DNA of 64,000 nt, taken from the NCBI GenBank assembly GCA_963797555.1, contig CAWCPV010000004.1:320001-384000 (forward strand), written 5' to 3'. Origin of the DNA: an uncultured Gammaproteobacteria bacterium. GTDB taxonomy: Bacteria; Pseudomonadota; Gammaproteobacteria; CAWCPV01. Positions 52,222-64,000 of this stretch are shown here, piece by piece. Each line of letters begins with the position of its first letter. The stretch's first letter is position 1. The notes under the pieces were generated by a model. The model had not been told where the DNA came from, made no database searches, and saw only the letters and a list, made by a program, of their open reading frames with translations. The translations under genes and the position numbers were made by a program.

Positions 52222-55059
52222 ATGACCACGCTCTTCATCAGCCACAGCAGCAAGGACAAAGGGTGGGCCGAGGTGCTGCGCGAGACCCTGCACGGCCAGG
52301 GCTACCAGTCGCTGTTCCTGGACTCCCACCCGGACGACGGCATCCCTGCCGGGGCCAAATGGGAGCAGACCCTCTGGCAGCGACTGCGGCAATCCCGCGG
52401 CGTCGTGGTACTGTGCACCAAGGACTGGCTCGCCTCGCCCTGGTGCGTCGCCGAGGCGATGATGGCGCGGGAAGCGGGGCAAGCCGGTCTTTCTCCTCGC
52501 CACTGCGGAGGTCGCGGACGGGCGTCAGGTCAAGGCGGCGGGGGAGGGAGGAGAAACGCCGCAGATCCCGGATTTCCTCAAGGACACCCAGTTCATCAGC
52601 TTGGCCGGCGTGTCCGAGGAGGAGGCCCTGCAGCGCCTCTGGCGCGGGCTGGAAGAAGAGGGCCTGAAGGACGATTTCCCGCTGCCGGAGCGGCCCTATC
52701 CGGGGCTGGAGCCCTTCCAGGAGCGAGATGCCGCCGTCTTCTTCGGCCGGGACCAGGACATCGCGCGAGTGCGAGGCGTCCTCAACCGATGCCGGCGCCG
52801 CAACGCGAAGGGCTTCATCCTGGTCCTGGGCGCCTCCGGATGCGGCAAGTCCTCCCTGGTGCGGGCGGGCGTGCTGCCGCGGCTCAGGCCCGTCGCCAGC
52901 GCGGGCGGCTCATCGCGTGAGTGGGTGATCGCGACCCCTTTCATCGGCAGCACGGGCCTCGACGGGCTCACCCGATCGCTGGCAACGGCTTTCGCGGACC
53001 GCAAGCCGCCAGAAGACCTCGAGTCCAAGATCCGAGCGATCGAGGCGGCGACGGACTCTGATGGCGGCACGCAAGAGGCCGCGCGGTCATTGCGGAGTCT
53101 CGCCAACAGCTTGCTCATCGCTTACGGCTGCACTGAAGGACACGTGCTGCTGGTGCTGGACCAGCTCGAAGAGGTGTTCGGAAGCAAGCCCGGCTCGGGG
53201 GCACGCATCATGCTGCGGCTGCTGCTGGGGGTCACCGCCGAGGACGGCAGCCCCGTGGTGGTCCTCGCCACCATGCGCTCGGATTTCCTCAACGCCTTTC
53301 AGCTCTTTCCCGGTGCCGCCGAGCGTTACGAGGAGGTCACCCTCGACCCCATGCCCAGGGCCCGCTTCGCCGAGCTGATCGAGGGGCCGGCGGAGCGCTT
53401 CGGCCTGCGGATCGAGCCCGGGCTGACCGAGCGCCTGGTGGAGGACACGCGCTACGACGACGCCCTGCCCCTGCTCGCCTTCACCCTGGAGCGGTTGTAC
53501 AAAAAGGGCGGGGAGGACGGGGTGTTGACGCTCCAGGAGTATCAGGACCTCTTCCCGCCCGTCGCCGTGCGCGGTGAGGACGGGCGCACGACCGAGCACC
53601 GAGGCGTGTCCGCCGCCATCAAGCACGCGGCCGACGAGATCCTCTCCCAGACCGGTTATGCCAGGCTTCTCGTCGAAGACCGACCCGCGCCTGCGCGACC
53701 TGCGCCGCGCGTTCTACAGTCTCGCCCGGGTGGGGGAGGCGGGCCAGTTCACGCGTCGCACCGCCCTGCGGTCACGGATGCCGTCGTTCGTGCGCGGAGG
53801 TCCTCGAGCGCTTCGTGGACCAGCGCCTGCTGGTGTCCGACGTGGGGAAGGATGGCGAGCGCACCCTGAGCGTCGCCCACGAGGCCCTGTTCCGCGTCTG
53901 GGACACCCTGCACGGCTGGCTGCTGCAAGACCGCAAGGCACTCGCGCTGCGCCACCAGATCGAGCAGGCCGCCGCCGAATGGCATGCCGCGCACCGGGCC
54001 GAGAGCCGCCGCTGGCCGGAGGAGCGCATCCTGGACGCGGTGGGCGAGATCGGCCGCAGCGGCGTGTCCCTCGATGACGTGGCCCAACCCGAGATCGTGC
54101 GCGCCTTCCTCGGCCCGACGCACCCGGAAGTCCTGTCGGAGCTGCCGTCCCTCGGCGCGGCCGAGGATCAGGCAGCCGGCAGCGGCTGCTACGGCGACGC
54201 CTGGCGTCTGCCCCTTTCCCACGAAGCGCGGGCCAGCGTCGGTGTGCGCCTGGCCCTGCTCGGCGACCGCCGCGGCGGCGTGGGGCTGCGCGACGATGGC
54301 ATGCCGGACACAGCCTGGTGCCGGGTCGAGGGCGGCGAGGTGATCATCGAGATCCGCGCGAACCCCGACGACCCGCGATCGGAGGTCGCGAGCACGCTCA
54401 CGCGGACGGTGCCCCGTTTCTGGATCGCACGCTATCCGGTCACCGTCGCCCAGTTCCAGGCGTTCCTTCGGGACTGTCACCGCGATGGCGAGTGGCACCT
54501 GCCGTCCGGCCTTCCCTTCGACCTCCCCGCCGACTACCCGCCGCCCAAGCACCGGGCAGGCTACGGTAACCATCCCGCTGATTCCGTCAACTGGTGGGAT
54601 GCGGTCGTCTGGTGTCGCTGGCTGAGTGCACGGCTCGGGCACGAGATCCGGCTGCCGACGGAATTCGAGTGGCAGCTTGCCGCGACAAGAGGCGACCCCG
54701 CCAGGACCTATCCCTGGGGCCCCGACTGGGATCCGCAGCAGGAGCCCTGGAGGGCCAACACTGTCGAGAGCGGCCTCAACAGATCCACGGCGGTCGGGCT
54801 CTACCCCTCGGGCGTGTCGCCGGCTGGCGTGCTGGATATGGCAGGGACCCTCTGGGAATGGTGCCTGAACAGTTTCGAAGACCCCGAGAACACGGGCCTT
54901 CCCGCAGACCAGCAGGACCGTCGTGTGCTGCGCGGCGGGTCCTGGTACGACGATCAGGCCCTCGCGCGCTCCGGCATCCGCCTCAGGCTCAGCCCGAGCA
55001 ACCGCGGCGGCAGCGTGGGGTTTCGGGTGTTGTGTTCGTCCCCCATCTGTGATCACTGA
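52222..55059 (+). CDS. DGR target 1: TIR + STAND (nSTAND1-like) NTPase + FGE-sulfatase/CLec-fold domain; several apparent frameshifts
   Basis: GGAGG RBS; TIR 'LFISHSSKD...SPWCVAE'; 'PYPGLEPF...FFGR', 'GASGCGKSS', 'LDQLEE', 'LPLLAF'; 'YPVTVAQF', 'RLPTEFEW', 'DMAGTLWEW', 'RGGSW...GFRV'. Confidence 0.9.
54922..55047 (+). repeat. DGR variable repeat VR1
   Basis: 126-nt gapless match to TR with 19 mismatches, 18 at TR adenines. Confidence 0.96.
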
Positions 55060-56247
55060 TCTCTGGCTGCCGCGCGAGCGGCACACACGGCGCGCAGCGG
55101 CGTCTCCGCGCGCTGAACGCGGCTTGGGTACCGCTGTGAGGACGCGGTGGACACGTGGTCAGGATTCCCGGGCCGCCTTTGCGCGGCGATGCTTGGCAGT
55201 ATGCACAGCGACCCAAGCACGTGTTGGCGCAGGCCCCAGCTATCGGCGTGGCCCATGTGGGCGATCCAGCCTTGGATACTCGCGTCGAGCCTCGGCGAAG
55301 CTGATCGCGCCGGCGTGATAGGCCGCCAGCCGTGAGCGCAGCCCCCGCCGAGCGTTGCGCACCTTGCGGCCCTTGACCAGCCGGTGGGTCGGGTGGACCA
55401 CGAAGCCGAGCCAGGGAATGCCGGCCTGGACCGGCAGAACCTGAGCGCGCGTTTCGTGGATAACGAGCCGCAGCCGGGCGAGCCTTTCGATGATCGCCGC
55501 CTTCCAGGCCCACAGCTCGCGCTTGCGGTCGCCGAAGAGGGCGAAGTCGTCGACGTAGCGCAGATAGGCTGGGCAGCGTAGGTCGCGCTTCACGAACTCG
55601 TCGAAGGGGTGCAGGTAGCAATTGGACCAGAACTGCGATGTCAGATTGCCTATCGGCAGGCCCCTCGGCCGGCACACGGCCAGCAGGTCATCCCCTGGGA
55701 AGCGCACGTAGCGGTACTCGTCGTCCAGCACGCCGCGGCCGCTGTCGACGATGGCCTCGACCAGCGCCATGATGTCCGGCTCCGGCATCTGGCGGCTCAG
55801 GGTATCGAGCAGGACCGCGTGATCGACAGACGCGAAGTGCTGCACGATGTCGGCGCGCAGCACGTAGCGGTGAAGGCGAGCGAATTCCTGTAGCCGGTCG
55901 ATGGCCCGGTGGGTGCCCTTGCCGGCCCGGTTGGCGTAGCTGTCCGGCATGAAGAGGCGCTCGAAGCGGGGCTCCATCACGGTGCACAGGGCGTGGTGCA
56001 CGACTCGATCGCGGAACTGGGCCGCGCTGATCTTGCGCCGTTTCGGGTCCTTGATATGGAAGTGGACGTAAGCGCCCGGGCGGTACGTGCCCGCCAGCAA
56101 CTGCGCGCGTAGCTCCGCCAGATGCTCCTCCGCTCGGTACTCGAAGCGGGCGACGCTCTGCGTGCCACGCTTGCCGCGCGCCGCCCTGCGCCAGGCGAGC
56201 ACCAGGTTCTCCCAGGAGCACAGATGCTCGAAGGCGGGGCTCGTCAT
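55053..56247 (-). CDS. DGR reverse transcriptase (apparent +1 indel near 55290)
   Basis: 'WENLVLAWRRAARGK', 'DPKRRKISAAQFRDRVVHHAL', 'GKGTH', 'GLPIGNLTSQ', 'YLRYVDD', 'WLGF'; C-terminal 'SIQGWIAHMGHADSWGLR' in the shifted frame. Confidence 0.93.
55068..55103 (+). other. Tandem hairpins downstream of VR1 (putative target-recognition element)
   Basis: TGCCGC-GCGA-GCGGCA followed by ACGGCGC-GCA-GCGGCGT (one mismatch). Confidence 0.7.
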
Positions 56248-56298
56248 CGAAGCGGGCCGCGCCACGCCTGGCGCGGCAACCCGAAACGGAGCATGAGC

Positions 56299-56643
56299 AT
56301 GGCCGAGGACATGGTGATCTTCTCGCGGACCTTCGACCTGCTGGAGTGGCTGCTGCCCAAAGCGGAGCGCTTCCCGCGGGTCTACCGATCCACCCTCACC
56401 CAGCGATTGATGGATGCGGCCCTGGACCTGCAGGAGACGCTGGCTGCCGCGGAATCGCGCGAGGGCCGATCGCGGGTATCCGCCCTGCGCAATGCCGATG
56501 CCGCCCTCGGGCGGCTGCGCATCTACCTGCGCCTCGCCCACCGCTGGCGCTGGCTGAGCGACGGCCAGTACGAGCACGTGAGCGCCATGACGGCTGAGAT
56601 CGGCCGGCTGCTAGGGGGCTGGGTCCGCTCGGAGCGCGGCTGA
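56299..56643 (+). CDS. avd: DGR accessory variability determinant (four-helix bundle)
   Basis: 114 aa; 'FPRVYR..L.QR', 'LRIYLRLA', 'YEH....EIGRLLGGW'; GGAG RBS. Confidence 0.9.
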   Translation: MAEDMVIFSRTFDLLEWLLPKAERFPRVYRSTLTQRLMDAALDLQETLAAAESREGRSRVSALRNADAALGRLRIYLRLAHRWRWLSDGQYEHVSAMTAEIGRLLGGWVRSERG

Positions 56644-56719: not shown

Positions 56720-56905
56720 GTATGCGCCCGACGGCCCGGCGACGCTAGGCCGTGCGGACGGGACCGACCGGCGCCATCTTTCCTACCTCGCCTCGGCCCG
56801 CAAACCGTCGTCGGCGGGCAATTCCGGAAGCGGGTCCGATCCGCAGCATGGACCTGACCCACTCGCTCGGCGCCCGAAAGCGCCTCGCCCTGGAAGGAAC
56901 CGAAA

Positions 56906-57034
56906 GATGTGGGACGAACACAACACCCGAAACCCCACGTTGTTGTTGCGGTTGTTCGGGTTGTTCCTGTTGCGGTTGCCGGAGCGCGCATTGTCCTGAT
57001 TGTCGTTCCAGGACCCGCCGCGCAGCACACGGGC
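56906..57034 (-). ncRNA. DGR template repeat (TR)
   Basis: Intergenic AAC-rich copy of both VRs; reads [43 protein letters not shown] with 12 AAY codons. Confidence 0.96.
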
Positions 57035-57181
57035 GTCGTCACCGGGCGGCCCCACCGGCCGTCAGACCGGCGTTGCCGATTATGCCGGAGATGGCGGACG
57101 CTAGCCAGACCACCGATGCATCGAACCCGGCCTGCACCACGTGGCAAACCGCGAGATGAGGCGAGTGGAAAATCCGCGTAA

Positions 57182-57220
57182 AGACGGCGCTTCGCGCCGT
57201 CTATGCCGCTCCCGCGGCAT
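57182..57220 (-). other. Tandem perfect hairpins downstream of VR2
   Basis: Minus strand: ATGCCGC-GGGA-GCGGCAT then AGACGGCGC-GAA-GCGCCGTCT. Confidence 0.8.
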
Positions 57221-57227
57221 CCAGTGA

Positions 57228-59960
57228 TCAGTGATCACAGATGGGGGACGAACACAACACCCGAAACCCCACGCCGTTGCCGCGGCCGCCCGGGCTGCCC
57301 CCGAAGCGGTAGCCGGAGCGCGCATAGCCCCGATCGACGACCCAGGACCCGCCGCGCAGCACACGGGCATCGAAATCATCGGCGCGGGACTCGATCACCT
57401 CGGTTCTGTCGTGCTTGTTCCAGCACCATTCCCAGACCGTTCCCGCCATGTCGAGTGCACCTGCCGGGGAGCCGCCAGCGGGGTACATGCCGACCGCGGT
57501 AGCGGCCCCGAGCCGGCTCTCGAAGGTGTTCGCCCGGTGCGGCTCGCCTTTGGGATCCCACTCGGGTCCCCAGGGGAAAACATTATCGGGGTCGCCGCCC
57601 GTGGCCGCCTGCTGCCATTCCCACTCGTCCGGCAGGCGTACGTCGAAGCCGCGGCGCCGCGAAAGCCAGCGGCAGAAAGCGAGGGCGTCGAACCAGCTCA
57701 CGTAGACCGCAGGGTGGTTGCCGTAGCGGCCGAGGTCGTAGCCGTCGCCTTCGGGATCGCGATAAAGGTCTCCTGCCCACCAGCGGGGATCGCGCCAGCC
57801 GTCATCCTTCTCCAGGAAGGCCCGATACTGCGCGACCGTGACGGGGTAGCGGGCGATGTGAAAGCCCTCGACCTGCTTGCCGCGCGCTTTGGTGCCGCCG
57901 AGCAAACGCCGCTGGACCTGAATGGCGACCTCGCCGCCGGGCACTGGGCACCAGTCCATCTGCGGGGTCCCCTGCGCATCGACCCCCACCCCCAGCCGCG
58001 GGTCCCCGAGGACGGCGAGGCGCTCGCCGATGAGGGTGCGGCGGCGGTGGGTCGTGTCGGGCCTGTCGATCTCGGCCAGCATTGCATCGGCATCGACGGG
58101 ACCGAGGAACTCCTCTTCTTCCGGGCTCAGCACGAAGCGCGGGCCGGGCTGCCGCAGCATCGACGCCAGTTCGCGCACGCGCTCGTGCGACCAGAGGTAG
58201 CTCGGTTGCTTCTGGTGCTCGAGCCAGTTGCGCGCGTCCGCCTGAAGCTGCTGGCCCAGCGCCGCCCGCTGCTTATGCTGCTCGACATAGTTCCAGAGCG
58301 TCGGCCAATAGGGCTGGGCCTTGCCCTCGGGGTCCAGGCCCTTGCTGCGGATCAGCGTCTCGTGGATCAGGCTGACCCACCGCCCGTCGCGCTGCGCGTC
58401 CTCGTCCCCCTCGGTCCGCTCGGTCACGGTGATGAGCCGCAGCGGCCCCTGTGTCTGCCCCACGTCCCGGGCGCGCTCGCCGGCGAGACGACTGACCAGG
58501 GCGCGACCGTCATCGCCGCCGCCCGCCGCTGCCATGGCCTCGGGGAACGGGAGACGCCGGCGGGTGTGACGGCGTCCTTCGGGGTCCACGTTCACCAGCC
58601 GGAACAGAAGCTCCAGAGCCCGGTTGCGCTCGCTGCCCAACGCTTGGAGCAGATCGTCGGCGCTGCGGCTGAGGATGCCGGCGAGGCCGCCCTGATCGGT
58701 GAAGAGCTTGCCGCTCAGGCGGGGGCTGTTCTTGCGCTGCTCCCACAGCCAGTGGAGCGCGTTCTCGACCAGCGGCAGCGCCCCCGGCTCGTCGTACGCC
58801 TGTTGCACCATGGCCTCCTGCACCTCGCTCACATCGAGACCGGCCAGCCGCGCCGGGCCGCCGATGACCTCGCGCAGAGCATCCGCAGTAATGGGCGGCA
58901 GCGTCCAGGGCTTACCCAGCCGGTTGCGCAGGCCGACCAGCCGCCGCAGGTCCTCGAAGCGGTCGAGAAAGTCCGCGCGCACGGTGGAGATGATGAACAG
59001 CGGACAATCGTTGTCTCCCAACGCGCCCGCGAGCAGGCGATCGAAGTGCTTGCGCTCGTCCGGGTCGGAGAAGGTGAACAGCTCCTCGAACTGATCGATG
59101 GCGAGCAGAAAGGCGCTGTCGTCCCGCTTGCGGCTGCGTAGCCAGTCGGTGAGGGCGCGGTCACTGGCCTCCAGGCGTTGGCGGACATCGGCCATCTCCT
59201 CCTCGAAGGTCAGCGCGAGCTTCTCGGCCAGCATGGCCACCGGGTGCTCCCCCGGCATCATCGGCCCGATCCGCCGCCAGTGCTCGATGCGGGTGCGGGG
59301 CCACAGCCAACCCTGCTCCACCAGCGGCAGCAGGCCGGCGCTCATCAGCGAGGACTTGCCGGAGCCGCTGTTGCCGTTGATCTCCAGCCAGCGCACGCTC
59401 GGGCTGCCGGGACGGGTGTCGAAGCAGGCGAGCGCGTCCAGGGTCTCCTTCTGGCGGCCGAAGAAGAGCTGGGCCTGATCCATGTTGTAGGCGGCGAGTC
59501 CGACGAAGGGGCGGCCCTCGAACTTGGCAGCGCTTGCCACCAGGGTGCGGTCGCGGATCTGCGCGAGCAGTCGCTCGGGCAGGGGGGCCGCCCCATCCCA
59601 GAGTGTCGCCTGGAACAGCCGCAGGAAGGCCGGGAGCGTGTCGGGTCCCATGTCGCCCAGCAGGATGGGAAAGATCGGCAGGCGCTCGGCGTCGTCGTGG
59701 GGACCGAAATAGCGGTTGAGCGCCGCCTGGGTCTCGGCCCCGATCCAGCGCCGCACCCCGTCCCGGCCCACCAGCACGACGAAGCTTCCGCAGGCATCCA
59801 CCGCCTCCTGCAGGCGGTCGAGCCACAGCTCGCCCGCGCGGATGCGATCGTCGTCCTTGAACACCGACAGCCCGCACCGATCGAGCTGCCCGCGGAGGTT
59901 GATGGCCGCTTCGAGGTCGTTACGGCTGTGGCTCAGGAAGACGTGGTAGGGATCGGTCAT
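57228..59960 (-). CDS. DGR target 2: TIR + STAND (nSTAND1-like) NTPase + FGE-sulfatase/CLec-fold domain, intact 910 aa
   Basis: 'VFLSHSRND...WIGAE'; 'PFVGLAAY...FFGR', 'GNSGSGKSS', 'IDQFEELF', 'PGALPL'; 'YPVTVAQY', 'RLPDEWEW', 'RGGSW...GFRV'. Confidence 0.93.
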   Translation of the reverse strand: MTDPYHVFLSHSRNDLEAAINLRGQLDRCGLSVFKDDDRIRAGELWLDRLQEAVDACGSFVVLVGRDGVRRWIGAETQAALNRYFGPHDDAERLPIFPILLGDMGPDTLPAFLRLFQATLWDGAAPLPERLLAQIRDRTLVASAAKFEGRPFVGLAAYNMDQAQLFFGRQKETLDALACFDTRPGSPSVRWLEINGNSGSGKSSLMSAGLLPLVEQGWLWPRTRIEHWRRIGPMMPGEHPVAMLAEKLALTFEEEMADVRQRLEASDRALTDWLRSRKRDDSAFLLAIDQFEELFTFSDPDERKHFDRLLAGALGDNDCPLFIISTVRADFLDRFEDLRRLVGLRNRLGKPWTLPPITADALREVIGGPARLAGLDVSEVQEAMVQQAYDEPGALPLVENALHWLWEQRKNSPRLSGKLFTDQGGLAGILSRSADDLLQALGSERNRALELLFRLVNVDPEGRRHTRRRLPFPEAMAAAGGGDDGRALVSRLAGERARDVGQTQGPLRLITVTERTEGDEDAQRDGRWVSLIHETLIRSKGLDPEGKAQPYWPTLWNYVEQHKQRAALGQQLQADARNWLEHQKQPSYLWSHERVRELASMLRQPGPRFVLSPEEEEFLGPVDADAMLAEIDRPDTTHRRRTLIGERLAVLGDPRLGVGVDAQGTPQMDWCPVPGGEVAIQVQRRLLGGTKARGKQVEGFHIARYPVTVAQYRAFLEKDDGWRDPRWWAGDLYRDPEGDGYDLGRYGNHPAVYVSWFDALAFCRWLSRRRGFDVRLPDEWEWQQAATGGDPDNVFPWGPEWDPKGEPHRANTFESRLGAATAVGMYPAGGSPAGALDMAGTVWEWCWNKHDRTEVIESRADDFDARVLRGGSWVVDRGYARSGYRFGGSPGGRGNGVGFRVLCSSPICDH
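57240..57368 (-). repeat. DGR variable repeat VR2
   Basis: 129-nt gapless match to TR with 23 mismatches, all at TR adenines. Confidence 0.97.
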
Positions 59961-60024
59961 CAGCAGCGGCCCGGGACCATCGAAATCCGGGCGTTCGGCC
60001 TCGCGAGCTGATAACGCGCTCGCA

Positions 60025-61050
60025 TCATGCCGGAAGCGACACGAGACCGAGCCTTGCTTGCAGGCCCTTGCGGACCAACTGCACGGCGCGGCGCATGTCC
60101 CTTGTCGCGAGCAGCTCGCGGGTCTCCGGCTCATCCAGGCCGGTGCTGAGTGCCGCGGAAAGATTGGGCCTGGCTGTTTCGATGTGCTGGAACAGGGCGT
60201 CCAGCGCATCCCCAGTGGCGCGGACGCCGAGTGGCAACTGGAACTGCGCGCTCAGGTCCAGCAGCTTCTCGAGGCCCGCGGTCCTGGCCTTGTGCCAATC
60301 CACGGTGAATTCCTCGGGACGGGTTGCGGCCGGGCCGAGCAGCGCCCTGGACAGCACTTCCGCGGCGCCGCCGAACCCGCCCAGGATGTAGAGCGGGACT
60401 TGGCGTTCGAGTGCCATCAGCGCTTCCTCGAAGATGCCGGGCAGAAAGCCGCTGAACCCTTGCACCTTGCCGCCGAGTATCACCCGCGCCACGATCGGCG
60501 GCACCGGCTCCGGGCTCGGGAGGTCGGGAATGTCGATGGCCATGCCGTCCATCGCCAGGCGGCGCATGCTGCTCAGAGCGACGGCGGCGTTGAACAGCGC
60601 GCGATCCGAGCCTCCTCTCGCTTCATGGTCCGGAACCGTATCCGCCTGCGAAATGCCCGCGTGCTGCTGGGTGATGCGAACGACCCGGCAGCAGTTGATC
60701 CACTCGGCCTCGATCCGGGGCGTGATGTCGAGGTAGTGCGGCCATGCGGAATGGTTGTAGAGCCGGCCGATCACGAGATTGGTATCCGGACCGCCCAGGC
60801 TGTTGTCCTCCTGCTCCGCGCTGATCAGGCGCAGGAGGTCGAAGGTGAAGTTGTCCTCGGTTTCTTGCCAGTGGCCGCCGTAGGCGAGGCTCACCCCCTG
60901 TCTCAGCAGGGGGCGTGCGAGGCGCAGCAGCAGCTCGCGCAGGTGCTCCAGGCCCAGGCCGCGGGCCAGGAGGTTTTCCCTCGCATAGGAGACGGAGAGG
61001 CCGACGACGCGAGGCGTGCTGGCTCGCGAGCGATACTTGCCGCCGCTCAT
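60025..61050 (-). CDS. SLOG-superfamily (cluster2-like) protein
   Basis: 'VGLSVS', 'LAYGG', 'LSSMR', 'RVILGGK...G.LPGIFEE', 'PLYILGGFGGAA'; ATGA overlap with the upstream TIR gene. Confidence 0.75.
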   Translation of the reverse strand: MSGGKYRSRASTPRVVGLSVSYARENLLARGLGLEHLRELLLRLARPLLRQGVSLAYGGHWQETEDNFTFDLLRLISAEQEDNSLGGPDTNLVIGRLYNHSAWPHYLDITPRIEAEWINCCRVVRITQQHAGISQADTVPDHEARGGSDRALFNAAVALSSMRRLAMDGMAIDIPDLPSPEPVPPIVARVILGGKVQGFSGFLPGIFEEALMALERQVPLYILGGFGGAAEVLSRALLGPAATRPEEFTVDWHKARTAGLEKLLDLSAQFQLPLGVRATGDALDALFQHIETARPNLSAALSTGLDEPETRELLATRDMRRAVQLVRKGLQARLGLVSLPA

Positions 61051-62354
61051 AATGCCACCTGGTCGAAGCTGTGGAAGGCGAGCCGCGGGAAGAATTCGTC
61101 GAGAATATCGAGCTCGAGCCCGGAAAGACCGCGGCCAGGATAGAGCACGCGCAGCTCCTCGCTTGCCGCCCGCACCCTGGGGATATGCAGCAGCGTGGTG
61201 GGGTCGGGCAGCCAGTTGAGAACGATGCAGTCCGCCTCGTCCGGCATCGTTCTTCCGAGAGCCGAGTGGAACGCGGCGAGCAGGACGTCGCGCAGCGCGA
61301 TGGTCACGATCTGCTCCGATTGGTGCAGTTGCGCCGCGGGGTCGACCGGTTCGTCCGACCAGCGGATGAGCGTGGCGTTGCCGATCTCGGGGATGCCCGG
61401 TGTCTGGGATCCCCCTTCGAGCGCTTCGACCACGACCATGGGATTCAAGCGCCACCGCTCGGCGAGGCCGGGCCTCGGGATGTCCTGCAGCGGGCGCCGA
61501 AACAGCGACAGCTCGCGCCGGCACCATGGGCGGGTCGCATAGCGGGCGCTGCGCACGGCGATCATGGCCGCGGTCTGCATGCCCTCGACATTCGACTGCA
61601 GCACCCGGCTGAACGCCGATCCGAAGGGAATGTCGTTTTCATCATAAAACGCGGCGAGCTGGGTCTGACTGTAGATATAGTCGCGAATCCGCCTGGCGGG
61701 CTCCGTGCCATCCGCCTTGGCATGGCTGAGAAAAATCGTGATCTTCGGCTGAGCCGCGTCCACCGCCGCCCCGCCATCGACCGCGTTCCCGGCCGGCGCG
61801 TCCCCCGGCCTCAGCATGATGCGGCACAGGGCCTCGGTGAGCTGCTTCAAGAGCGAGCGGACCACGGTCTCGGTCGCCTCCGGCGGTACTGGAGCACCCG
61901 CGACGGGCAACGGCAGACCTGCGGGGCGGAGGAAATTCAGCTCGCGCAGGGGCGCGGGCACGTTGAATGCCGTCGAATCCAGGGCCACCGGCAGGAACAC
62001 GCGGCGCACGCCAGTGCCGCGCTCCAATGCGAGTCGCACCAGCCAGTGCCGCCAGGCGGCATCCGCGATCATCTGATCGTCGATCAGCAGCAGCACGGTC
62101 TGCATGTTGGCGGAGCCGGAGGCGGGCGCCTGTGGCGGGGGTGGGGAGTTGGGGCCTGGAAACCGCGACTCTCCCGGCAAGGGCGGGGGCAACCCGCCCT
62201 TCGGGGCTTCCGGAGCCGGAAGGCTGCGGTAGAACACCTGCGGGCCGAGGCCATTGCCAGGCCTCAGCCACCCATGAATGCGCGGGGCCAGCAGTTCTCC
62301 GAGCGTACTGGCGGGGTGCCACAACACGAAGATCTCAGGAATCGGATAGTCCAC
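61047..62354 (-). CDS. TIR-domain protein
   Basis: 'IFLSHAKADG', 'FYDENDIPFG', 'YATRPWCRRE'; additional N-terminal alpha/beta domain. Confidence 0.85.
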   Translation of the reverse strand: MDYPIPEIFVLWHPASTLGELLAPRIHGWLRPGNGLGPQVFYRSLPAPEAPKGGLPPPLPGESRFPGPNSPPPPQAPASGSANMQTVLLLIDDQMIADAAWRHWLVRLALERGTGVRRVFLPVALDSTAFNVPAPLRELNFLRPAGLPLPVAGAPVPPEATETVVRSLLKQLTEALCRIMLRPGDAPAGNAVDGGAAVDAAQPKITIFLSHAKADGTEPARRIRDYIYSQTQLAAFYDENDIPFGSAFSRVLQSNVEGMQTAAMIAVRSARYATRPWCRRELSLFRRPLQDIPRPGLAERWRLNPMVVVEALEGGSQTPGIPEIGNATLIRWSDEPVDPAAQLHQSEQIVTIALRDVLLAAFHSALGRTMPDEADCIVLNWLPDPTTLLHIPRVRAASEELRVLYPGRGLSGLELDILDEFFPRLAFHSFDQVAL

Positions 62355-62552
62355 GCGTCCCCCGGGCAGGCTGCAGGCACCTGCGCTGTTGGCAGGATGG
62401 TAGGGGCTATGGCGCGGTCGGACAAGCCGGTGGCGGAGTCAACGAGGCGAGCAGGAGGCCAGTTGCGCTGTGAGGACTGGGGGCGGGTGCGATCTGGAAG
62501 CCGTTGGCTCCAACGCGGGCCCTGCGAACGGGCGGCAGTCCGAGGCACCGCG

Positions 62553-64000
62553 TCAGGTGCCCCTGGATCTCTCCCGCGCACTGCGAAACCAAGAGAGCAG
62601 CCCACGGCCGGCATGCCGCCGGCAAGCTTCAAGCTCGGCCTCGACGGTCTTCTTGTCGTCCGCCCACTGGGCCATCCCGGGCGCCCGCTCCAGCAGGGCG
62701 GCGAAGATACGGTAGGACGCTTCGTAAAGGGGCAAAGCGGCCTCGTTCCTGCCATTGCCGGCCTCCATGCGCGCAAGCCGCAGATAGGCTAACGCCAGGT
62801 CGCGCTGCCAGCCGGCGTTGCTCGGGTCCTGCTCGGCCAGGCGCCGGCTGATGGCGAGGGTTTGCTCGAAGGCCGAGCGCGCTGCCTCGAGCTGCCCTTG
62901 GGCCTGCAGCACGCCGCCCACCCGGCTGTGCGCCACCGCGAGGCCGCGCTGCCAGCCGGCGTTGCTCGGGTCCTGCTCGGCCAGGCGCCGGCTGATGGCG
63001 AGGGTTTGCTCGAAGGCCGAGCGCGCTGCCTCGAGCTGCCCTTGGGCCTGCAGCACGTCGCCCACCCGGCTGTGCGCCACCGCGAGGTCGCGCTGCCAGC
63101 CGGCGTTGCTCGGGTCCTGCTCGGCCAGGCGCCGGCTGATGGCGAGGGCTTGCTCGAAGGCCGAGCGCGCTGCCTCGAATCTGCCCTTGGGCCTGCAGCA
63201 CGCCGCCCACCCGGCTGTGCGCCACCGCGAGGCCGCGCTGCCAGCCGGCGTTGCTCGGGTCCTGCTCGGCCAGGCGCCGGCTGATGGCGAGGGTTTGCTC
63301 GAAGGCCGAGCGCGCTGCCTCGAGCTGCCCTTGGGCCTGCAGCACATCGCCCACCTGGCTGTGCGCCACCGCGAGGTCGCGCTGCCAGCCGGCGTTGCTC
63401 GGGTCCTGCTCGGCCAGGCGCCGGCTGATGGCGAGGGACTGCTCGAAGGCCGAGCGCGCTGCCTCGAGCTGCCCCTGGGCACGGAAAACGTCGCCGAGCA
63501 GACAACGCCCCTCCCCCTGCGCCGGCTCGTCGGTGCTGACACGTGCGAGATTCGAGAATCTCGCGCGCGGCGTCGGCGAGCTGTGCCGTTTCTCCCCGCG
63601 CGTCGCGCGCCCAAGCGATGGTGATCAGGCTCCAGAGGCGTGCCCGCCCATCGACGAGGCGGGTTTCGTCGAGCTCTCTGAGAACCGTCGCCAGGGCGTA
63701 CCGGTCCTCCGGGCGTGCACTGCTACTCCAGTGCCGGTTCAGGCGTTCCAGCTCACTCGCGCCGCGTTCGGGGTCGGCGCATAGCTGGTGGTAAATCCAT
63801 TCGATGCGGCCCGTTGCCCCGAGGTCGTCCGGGAAGCATGCCGCCGCGAGGGCGGACAGGGAACGGAGGTGGGAGAGGTTCTCCAGAGCTAGCGTCCGCC
63901 GCCATCCCAGGCGGGTGGATTCGTGGACGTTGCGCCGGTTCAGCCCGCCTCTGCCGTACCGCTCGACGAAGGGAAAGGACGCCAGCGCCTCGAACCGTCT
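62553..64000 (-). CDS. TPR-repeat protein, 5' end outside the window; apparent indels near 63550 and 63180
   Basis: Frame open from 64000 ('FEALASFPFVERY...NVHESTR...EWIYHQL') leading into 48-aa repeats 'AFEQALAISRRLAEQDPSNAGWQRDLAVAHSRVGDVLQAQGQLE'. Confidence 0.8.
62796..63480. repeat. About 4.7 near-identical 144-bp coding tandem repeats
   Basis: Anchor GCTGCCAGCCGGCGTTG at 62804, 62948, 63092, 63237 and 63381. Confidence 0.93.

Follow-up and report, generated by a model that had tools for sequence, protein, structure and literature searches.

Thoeris type I consists of the TIR protein ThsB and the SIR2-SLOG protein ThsA, and the available text of a recent preprint also describes an uncharacterised type III in which several TIR proteins accompany a SLOG effector (10.64898/2025.12.03.692087). 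Sensors of the STAND NTPase-FGS/CLec type, diversified by diversity-generating retroelements (DGRs), are described in the available text of Kaur et al. 2021 eLife (PMC8195603), and clade 5D DGRs in that of Dore et al. 2024 PNAS (PMC10907252). Avs and other bacterial NLR-like STAND proteins combine an effector head, a STAND NTPase and a variable C-terminal sensor, and oligomerise on ligand binding, as outlined in the accessible part of PMC10907252. In addition, 'TIR-SLOG-based antiviral systems' are cited as predicted in the accessible part of PMC9503650. The present analysis concerns a 64,000-nucleotide stretch of a gammaproteobacterial genome (hereafter the window; contig CAWCPV010000004.1, G000:C4:320001-384000; genome of 5.35 Mb in 20 contigs, 84.6% complete), in which a gene pair encoding a TIR protein (TIRp) and a SLOG protein lies beside a DGR with two TIR-STAND-CLec targets. 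The pair was found to be a widespread conserved module, and its adjacency to DGR-diversified sensors recurs on other contigs.

Two layers, the DGR with its sensors and the TIR-SLOG core, make up the locus, a composite island that spans about 14 kb from window position 52222 to about 65900. On the minus strand the genes are arranged, from upstream to downstream, as NDOM (a small neighbour family discussed below), a TIR-NTPase gene, a TPR gene, the TIRp gene, the SLOG gene, DGR target 2, the template repeat (TR) and the reverse transcriptase (RT) gene. The plus strand carries a bAvd-like gene and DGR target 1, the latter converging on the minus-strand genes. The TIRp gene ends GCA TTA TGA and the SLOG gene, ATG AGC, begins within these letters, giving an ATGA overlap. 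The SLOG stop codon occupies 60025-60027 and is followed, after a 64-nt gap, by the ATG of target 2 at 59960. A sequence-only reading of this DNA had reported the gene order and these junctions (the ATGA overlap, the 64-bp gap to target 2 and then the TR), and the coordinates were checked and agree. The Trp-x-x-x-Glu motifs that it had pointed out in three TIR domains are likewise all present in the translations, as WCVAE in target 1, WIGAE in target 2 and WCRRE in TIRp.

The SLOG protein (341 amino acids; 60025..61050, minus strand) matched the Pfam family LD_cluster2 (PF18163) with an E-value of 7.7e-40 and 137.6 bits against a cut-off of 25.3, in two stretches that reach profile position 234 of 264. 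Both PF18163-matching pieces were also above the cut-off in a whole-genome search. This family profile supports the membership of the SLOG superfamily that had been suggested for the 60025-61050 protein. A motif GGFGGxxE (residues 224-231) is invariant in 35/35 SLOG sequences. At E<=0.001, 346 relatives of the protein were found; the 120 that were listed measure about 340 amino acids, with identities of 58-76%. When the 35 SLOG homologues were used as a profile against the PDB, no chain was found at E<=1; the feature neighbours of the protein in the Atlas belong to further SLOG families, Cap17-like_N, STALD and LD_cluster3, at scores of only 0.81-0.83 (STALD 0.83). PF18163 is present in 4/400 scored genomes of the class, with this genome counted. 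The Pfam LD_cluster families are said to derive from Burroughs et al. 2015 (NAR 43:10633), who reportedly predicted TIR-SLOG antiviral systems.

TIRp (435 amino acids; 61047..62354, minus strand) is composed, according to Pfam and an AF2 model, of an N-terminal alpha/beta domain, a TIR domain (about residues 204-355, with WCRRE and E281) and a C-terminal alpha/beta domain. Residues 207-287 matched Pfam TIR_2 with an E-value of 3.5e-10. In the model (pLDDT 88.2), residues 204-354 aligned with the SARM1 TIR domain (9hq0_A) at Z 15.4 and rmsd 2.0 over 125 aligned residues, and the TIR domain aligned with ThsB (6lhy_A) at Z 11.8. The Pfam match and the predicted structure thus bear out the assignment of 61047-62354 as a TIR protein, the modelled middle domain being a TIR fold that is SARM1-like. 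Full-length Foldseek matches of the whole model, to SIS isomerases (TMq 0.18), were spurious and stood beside true TIR matches; the TIR domain was placed with VIA-align. The Glu of the W-x-x-x-E region is the catalytic residue in NAD-cleaving TIRs. C278, R279 and E281 of TIRp are invariant in 34/34 aligned homologues, and the invariance of E281 indicates that this TIR is apparently of the catalytic type. A prediction of the complex of TIRp and SLOG with NDOM as partner gave a score of 0.00 and no answer, which counts neither for nor against binding.

The distribution of the pair was assessed by scanning one genome per species with the 35-row SLOG alignment, which yielded 70 loci; the single SLOG protein used as a query found nothing. 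Neighbouring genes were recovered by translating stop-to-stop open reading frames (ORFs) of at least 70 amino acids and searching them with the proteins of this locus. In 43 loci the SLOG gene is immediately preceded by one for a full-length TIRp homologue, the two share one ORF in 22, and both arrangements occur in 2, so that the pair is adjacent or fused in 63/70. The seven exceptions comprise L046 and L059, which are short cut contigs, L063, L068 and L069, whose matches are weak and partial, and L016 and L031. The TIR-SLOG pair is therefore a widespread conserved module. Its neighbours include stand-alone NDOM in 12/70 loci, proteins of about 850-950 amino acids that carry NDOM as their N-terminus and a weak patatin match (E ~1e-6) in 16/70, and small ThsB-like TIR proteins in 18/70. 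On sequence grounds, TIRp, the LD_cluster2 SLOG protein and NDOM (alone or fused to patatin) make up an uncharacterised three-part system in at least six phyla, judged by record titles; it does not appear among the PADLOC v2 or NCBIfam Thoeris models. Going by record titles, the holders include many floc-forming taxa, namely Zoogloea, Thauera, Accumulibacter and Dechloromonas. Additional neighbours of the pair were a 902-aa HEPN-domain protein (L058 5819-8524, plus strand) and an nSTAND1-WD40 protein (L036 11223-14360, minus strand).

In Bacteroidota and others, small ThsB-like TIRs flank a fused TIR-SLOG protein, which is a Thoeris-like layout. In the case of L052, the fused protein (662 amino acids) matched LD_cluster2 at 1.2e-73 and TIR_2 at 5e-8, and the flanking small proteins matched ThsB_TIR (1e-20) and PADLOC ThsB models. 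An arrangement of a fused TIR-SLOG protein of about 660 amino acids between two ThsB-like TIR genes was seen in gut Bacteroidota (L045, L049, L050 and L052-L056; Bacteroides, Phocaeicola, Prevotellaceae and relatives), and no curated NCBIfam Thoeris type III model matched this operon above its cut-off. The locus resembles Thoeris types I and III in that a catalytic-type TIR is encoded beside a SLOG-superfamily protein, with the expected logic that SLOG reads the TIR product, and in that distant relatives of the pair have ThsB-like TIRs at their flanks. Unlike Thoeris type I, whose ThsA has a SIR2 (or TM/Macro) domain joined to a STALD-type SLOG, it has no SIR2 domain, and its SLOG protein belongs to LD_cluster2 (PF18163), not STALD. 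The TIR partner is also a 435-aa three-domain protein, and the candidate signal makers are DGR-diversified STAND sensors, not a small ThsB. Assignment to type III was not obtained, as the target 2 TIR scored 16.2 bits for ThcB4 (cut-off 220) and the fused L052 protein 15.7 bits for ThcA (cut-off 110).

The DGR itself is complete, with an RT, a bAvd protein, a TR and two variable repeats (VRs). The RT gene (336 amino acids from MTSPAFEHL; 55240..56250, minus strand) matched Pfam RVT_1 with an E-value of 6e-14. The bAvd-like accessory gene, divergent from the RT gene (56122..56643, plus strand), matched bAvd (PF22296) with an E-value of 5.2e-19 and 69.2 bits against a cut-off of 40; its true start is probably near 56300, because the Pfam match spans ORF residues 64-170. 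The TR (56905..57038, minus strand; direct repeat family D2) and VR2 (57239-57372, minus strand), which lies at the end of the FGE-sulfatase domain of target 2, are 82% identical over 134 nt. Of their 24 mismatches, 23 fall at TR adenines, and in the core of the repeat every mismatch does. Target 2 (910 amino acids, intact; 57228..59960, minus strand) consists of a TIR head, nSTAND1 and FGE/CLec, with Pfam matches to TIR_2 (1e-13), nSTAND1 (1.4e-75) and FGE-sulfatase/CLec (1e-42). Target 1 (52222..55059, plus strand) shows the order TIR, nSTAND1-like NTPase and FGE/CLec in its ORF translations. It is spread over three frames (from 52222, 52601-53869 and 53815-55059), with frame changes near 52480 and 53800, and its FGE domain is 54% identical to that of target 2 (tblastn). 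Inside target 1, at 55015-55034 (plus strand), the TR end recurs as an exact 20-nt copy; this is the third copy, and none was expected in shuffled sequences. VR1 accordingly falls at approximately 54915-55048 (plus strand), with limits inferred from the 20-nt match and not from a full alignment.

The locus thus has the RT, the Avd protein, the adenine-biased TR/VR pair and the VR at the 3' end of a CLec/FGE gene that mark a DGR, and target 2 has the effector head, nSTAND1 and C-terminal FGE/CLec of a STAND NTPase-FGS/CLec target. Since this anatomy fits the published class of such targets with TIR heads, this half of the locus is of an already known kind. It shares with the STAND-FGS/CLec DGRs, as far as the available descriptions go, two targets per DGR, a single C-terminal CLec/FGE domain, a central nSTAND1, an N-terminal TIR, and an RT with a four-helix accessory protein. 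It differs from them, as described there, in its TIR-SLOG pair, its NDOM and its TIR-NTPase/TPR neighbours. The sensors also share the tripartite layout of Avs; unlike in Avs, the sensor is a retroelement-rewritten CLec fold, not TPR-like repeats, and a separate TIR-SLOG module is recurrently adjacent. The locus agrees with the predicted TIR-SLOG antiviral systems, as outlined in the accessible part of PMC9503650, in the contextual coupling or fusion of TIR and SLOG in nucleotide-signalling conflict systems, whereas its connections with NDOM/patatin and with DGR targets are drawn solely from the loci analysed here.

The association of TIR-SLOG with DGR targets, which the sequence-only reading had noticed in this genome, is not unique to it. 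FGE/CLec genes lie within 10 kb in 11/70 loci (L004, L006, L009, L020, L022, L023, L024, L032, L035, L061 and L070). Seven of the 70 have an RT within 10 kb, and the same seven contain A-biased TR/VR pairs, which RT homologues adjoin in L009, L020, L024, L032, L035 and L061. The seven loci amount to six contigs besides this one, as L020 and L070 are overlapping stretches of a single Ideonella contig, and the six fall in at least four SLOG lineages. The neighbouring sensors are mostly TIR-headed, with the architectures TIR-nSTAND1-FGE (L009, L024, L032, L035, L061), TIR-NACHT-FGE (L006), TIR-FGE (L009) and TIR-nSTAND1-TPR (L042); ParA-like-FGE, nSTAND1 alone and nSTAND1-WD40 were also found by Pfam. 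Since PF18163 is so rare in the class, chance adjacency is unlikely. In a quick tree of SLOG sequences from 44 of the 70 loci and the window (26 were left out), the FGE/DGR label needs seven changes, of which at least four are forced by well-supported branches; rows L047 and L070 of this tree have very long branches, probably from poor coordinates, and one internal stop of L047 was set to X.

A patatin partner and an FGE gene occur together in 0/70 loci. Among 34 close loci, 15 have patatin, 9 have FGE and none has both (hypergeometric 0.0018, or 0.0058 with near-duplicates collapsed; relatedness otherwise uncorrected), as expected if the two are alternative partners of one core. Stand-alone NDOM and FGE were not significantly associated in these loci (4/8 versus 5/26, Fisher p 0.16). 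On the Ideonella sp. A 288 contig (L020/L070; NZ_MWLO01000135.1, about 19-55 kb), one DGR with an RT, a TR and two VRs has a TIRp-SLOG pair on each side; one pair is close to that of the window, and the second, divergent pair comes with a stand-alone NDOM. The nearest relative locus, L004, is in a metagenome-assembled gammaproteobacterial genome (CAVOJV010000063.1) and its SLOG protein is 75% identical. It contains a split pair with NDOM, a second, fused TIR-SLOG (701 amino acids), four FGE-domain genes and a frame-split TIR-STAND gene, and no TR within the 21 kb examined. The SLOG sequences of L022 and L023 are identical.

Upstream of the pair, the TPR-repeat gene occupies 62553..64000 of the window (minus strand; Pfam TPR_12, E 3.1e-21), and its ATG lies at window-equivalent 64213. 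It contains six tandem 144-nt (48-aa) units at 62604-63611, up to 99% identical to one another (repeat family D1); one unit spacing, of 145 nt, falls at the site of one of two frame changes. Directly upstream, just past the window end, lies a gene for a TIR/SEFIR-like head and a P-loop NTPase (L003 8222-9394, minus strand), whose stop overlaps the start region of the TPR gene. The TIR/SEFIR-like head is interrupted by a TGA in frame (L003 9239-9241), which follows 'DEG' at a point where the reading frames of relatives would be expected to continue. The NTPase and TPR pair recurs in L014, there downstream of the SLOG gene, and its NTPase carries a TIR_2 head (E 1.6e-6). The co-oriented TPR gene placed in the cluster by the sequence-only reading is therefore present, but it is the second gene of a TIR-NTPase and TPR pair and does not stand alone.

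NDOM (162 amino acids; L003 9411-9899, equivalent to window position 65411-65899 and G000:C4:385411-385899, minus strand) lies about 1.4 kb past the window end. It emerged from unbiased clustering of the ORFs neighbouring TIR-SLOG pairs, in which it was the commonest extra family. The family, of about 160 amino acids, has no Pfam, PADLOC or NCBIfam match. It is large: of the 8000 candidates that were scored, 2960 fell at E<=0.001, with identities of 62-93% among the 120 listed. The copy here is of the stand-alone form and shares 78% identity with the NDOM of L004. The protein was modelled as a four-helix bundle, whose best match (5w93_A, Z 8.6, rmsd 3.2, 114 aligned) is in a range common for helical bundles and uninformative. 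An Atlas lead (0.85, rank 9) to the Type VI Thoeris effector ThsG (DUF6650, PF20355) was not upheld: hmmscan matched 0/27 NDOM members at E<=1, the best hhalign probability was 0.4%, and against a 38-sequence DUF6650 profile it was 0.27% (E 0.23), so homology is unsupported. Identity with Avd was likewise rejected. No member of the 27 matched bAvd or 23S_rRNA_IVP at E<=1, a separate bAvd gene is present, and in loci that have no DGR, NDOM is found fused to patatin-like proteins.

The genes for TIRp, SLOG, NDOM, target 2, RT and bAvd are intact in the assembly; target 1 and the TPR gene each have two frame changes, and the TIR-NTPase gene has one in-frame TGA. About 10 kb away, an NAD kinase gene (L003 16608-17577, minus strand; G000:C4 about 392.6-393.6 kb) has its N- and C-terminal-domain ORFs in different frames, and RT genes at further loci of the genome are split as well. 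Because this housekeeping gene and other RT genes are also split, the frame changes at the locus are probable assembly indel errors, as far as sequence comparison can tell, with real decay the less likely cause; indel errors may also lie behind the 84.6% completeness. A scan for promoters and terminators found no promoter-like and two terminator-like sites, against 5.2 expected, and was uninformative on co-transcription. The flanks (beyond about 66000 and below 52222), which are partially annotated, carry housekeeping-looking genes, including a recN-like gene, NAD kinase and an FAD oxidase-like ORF. Elsewhere in the genome, DGR and STAND-FGE genes lie at approximately 42-50 kb of C3, 46-63 kb of C6, 6-11 and 228 kb of C14, 85-88 kb of C20, 533-535 kb of C7 and 544-547 kb of C4. 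The heads of these STAND-FGE/CLec genes are DUF4062, TIR or none, and several of the genes are split over frames. The genome is a multi-DGR genome, like those described for aggregate-forming bacteria. The idea that TIR-headed targets are confined to the DGR beside the pair was rejected, as L075 (TIR-NACHT-FGE) and L076 (TIR-nSTAND1) lie elsewhere in the genome.

The best-supported reading of these data is that a conserved TIR-SLOG core is combined with differing sensor or effector partners in different lineages, the partner being a TIR-headed STAND protein in several Pseudomonadota and a DGR-diversified one here. That the sensors and the TIR-SLOG pair work together is suggested, though not proved, by the recurrent neighbourhood. 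The most economical mechanism would be a Thoeris-like relay, to which we give a probability somewhat short of even. In such a relay, ligand binding by the variable domain of the sensor would drive STAND oligomerisation and gather the N-terminal TIR heads, which would convert NAD+ into an ADP-ribose-derived signal. The SLOG protein would bind or process that signal and switch on its partner TIRp, which would deplete NAD+ or amplify the signal. The parallel would be Thoeris, with its SLOG domain reading a TIR product, and in other lineages the same core may be served by small ThsB-like TIRs or coupled to an NDOM-patatin lipase. The relay starts from domain identities, a DGR anatomy, a conservation and fusion of TIRp with SLOG, and a STAND/CLec neighbourhood that are all observed; from these we infer every biochemical step and the direction of information flow. 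The fused TIR-SLOG proteins flanked by ThsB-like TIRs in distant relatives lend support to a Thoeris-like logic.

Several observations weigh against this relay or against the novelty first claimed for it. The sequence-only reading had called the system undescribed, which is too strong for its parts, as DGR-diversified TIR-STAND-CLec systems and TIR-SLOG systems have each already been described in silico. No paper was found that names PF18163/LD_cluster2 or connects SLOG with DGR targets, although supplementary tables may hold such loci. The SLOG protein has no recognisable effector domain (Pfam finds PF18163 only), no NCBIfam family at E<=0.1, and hence no Thoeris type III ThcA match, and it matches no PADLOC model, ThsA included. 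Three genes of the locus are interrupted in the assembly, and the TPR gene has its NTPase partner, with NDOM, beyond the window end. Some pairs sit among housekeeping genes (SMC, RecB/RecD-like helicases), and the loci are related by descent, so that the counts overstate their independence. Furthermore, according to the available text of 10.64898/2025.12.03.692087, Avs-type TIR-STAND proteins presumably have their NADase effector in the TIR that they carry themselves, and no relay would then be needed.

In a different account, two independent systems would share one defence island. The sensors would be self-contained, Avs/NLR-like and armed with their own NAD+-depleting TIR, TIRp-SLOG (with NDOM) would be autonomous with a trigger of its own, and the two would be co-localised because defence genes cluster and move together. 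We consider this rather unlikely, if still a serious contender. It would explain why 59/70 loci have no FGE gene within 10 kb, with a patatin-like partner instead in 16/70 and ThsB-like TIRs in 18/70. It would also agree with the genome's at least four further DGR-type RT loci (C3, C6 and two on C14) and its STAND-FGE genes elsewhere (C20, C6, C7 and a second on C4), none of which is accompanied by the single TIRp-SLOG pair. The order and orientation relative to the DGR vary, from co-oriented downstream here to divergent upstream in L009, L032 and L035, and this variation fits island clustering as well as it fits an operon. The word SLOG, moreover, occurs nowhere in the available text of PMC10907252 and PMC8195603, the published descriptions of STAND-FGS/CLec DGRs, whose supplementary neighbourhood tables may nevertheless list such loci. 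What an island does not readily account for is that PF18163 and DGRs, both rare, nevertheless lie within 10 kb of each other on six other contigs, with at least four changes forced on the SLOG tree, that the neighbours are specifically TIR-headed STAND or CLec proteins and not a random assortment of defence genes, and that patatin and FGE partners are mutually exclusive.

A glycine-rich loop with a Glu recalls the catalytic LOG-type SLOG enzymes. The invariant GGFGGxxE could accordingly point to a LOG-like N-glycosidase activity with which the SLOG protein would break down basal TIR signal, a threshold or safety device by which self-recognising sensors would kill only on strong signalling. Aravind and colleagues propose, in the accessible part of PMC9503650, that SLOG cleaves the 1'-ribosyl N-glycosidic bonds of cADPR-like signals, and a SLOG protein without a separate effector domain would suit such a role. 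The pair is, however, equally conserved in loci that have no diversified sensor, and the tight coupling, or outright fusion, with a TIR that appears catalytic would suit production or execution more than quenching alone; a safety device appears very improbable. A role outside antiviral defence, either in kin or self recognition in aggregate-forming bacteria or as a housekeeping function of TIRp-SLOG in NAD or nucleotide metabolism, seems to us equally doubtful. The identities among the listed relatives of SLOG and NDOM are unusually high for defence genes, some loci lie among housekeeping genes, many holders are floc-forming, and kin recognition is raised as an alternative role of DGR-STAND proteins in the available text of Dore et al. 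(PMC10907252). Against this stand the patchy distribution in the class, the conflict-system partners (ThsB-like TIRs, patatin, STAND and HEPN) and a TIR of what appears to be the catalytic type, which is typical of conflict systems.

A bolder form of the relay may also be considered, though we hold it to be distinctly unlikely. The hypermutated NLR-like receptors, and the TPR-type receptor with them, would not kill alone; they would report, by way of NAD-derived messengers made by TIRs, to a single TIR-SLOG hub shared within each genome, and NDOM would serve as a new four-helix adaptor or signal reader, arming a patatin lipase in other lineages. If this were true, it would amount to a two-tier immunity in bacteria, in which a mutable, adaptive-like sensor layer is wired in trans to a conserved layer of signalling and execution. 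Bacteria have no closer analogue of mutable antigen receptors than DGR-diversified STAND-CLec proteins, and, to our knowledge, nobody has shown how these proteins act once a ligand is bound. The adjacent TIR-SLOG module offers a concrete and testable downstream pathway, in which it can be asked which NAD-derived molecule is made, which protein reads it and which executes the response. If the Thoeris-like relay is real, it would bring NLR-like sensors within the reach of signalling of the Thoeris type, as in plant TNL immunity.

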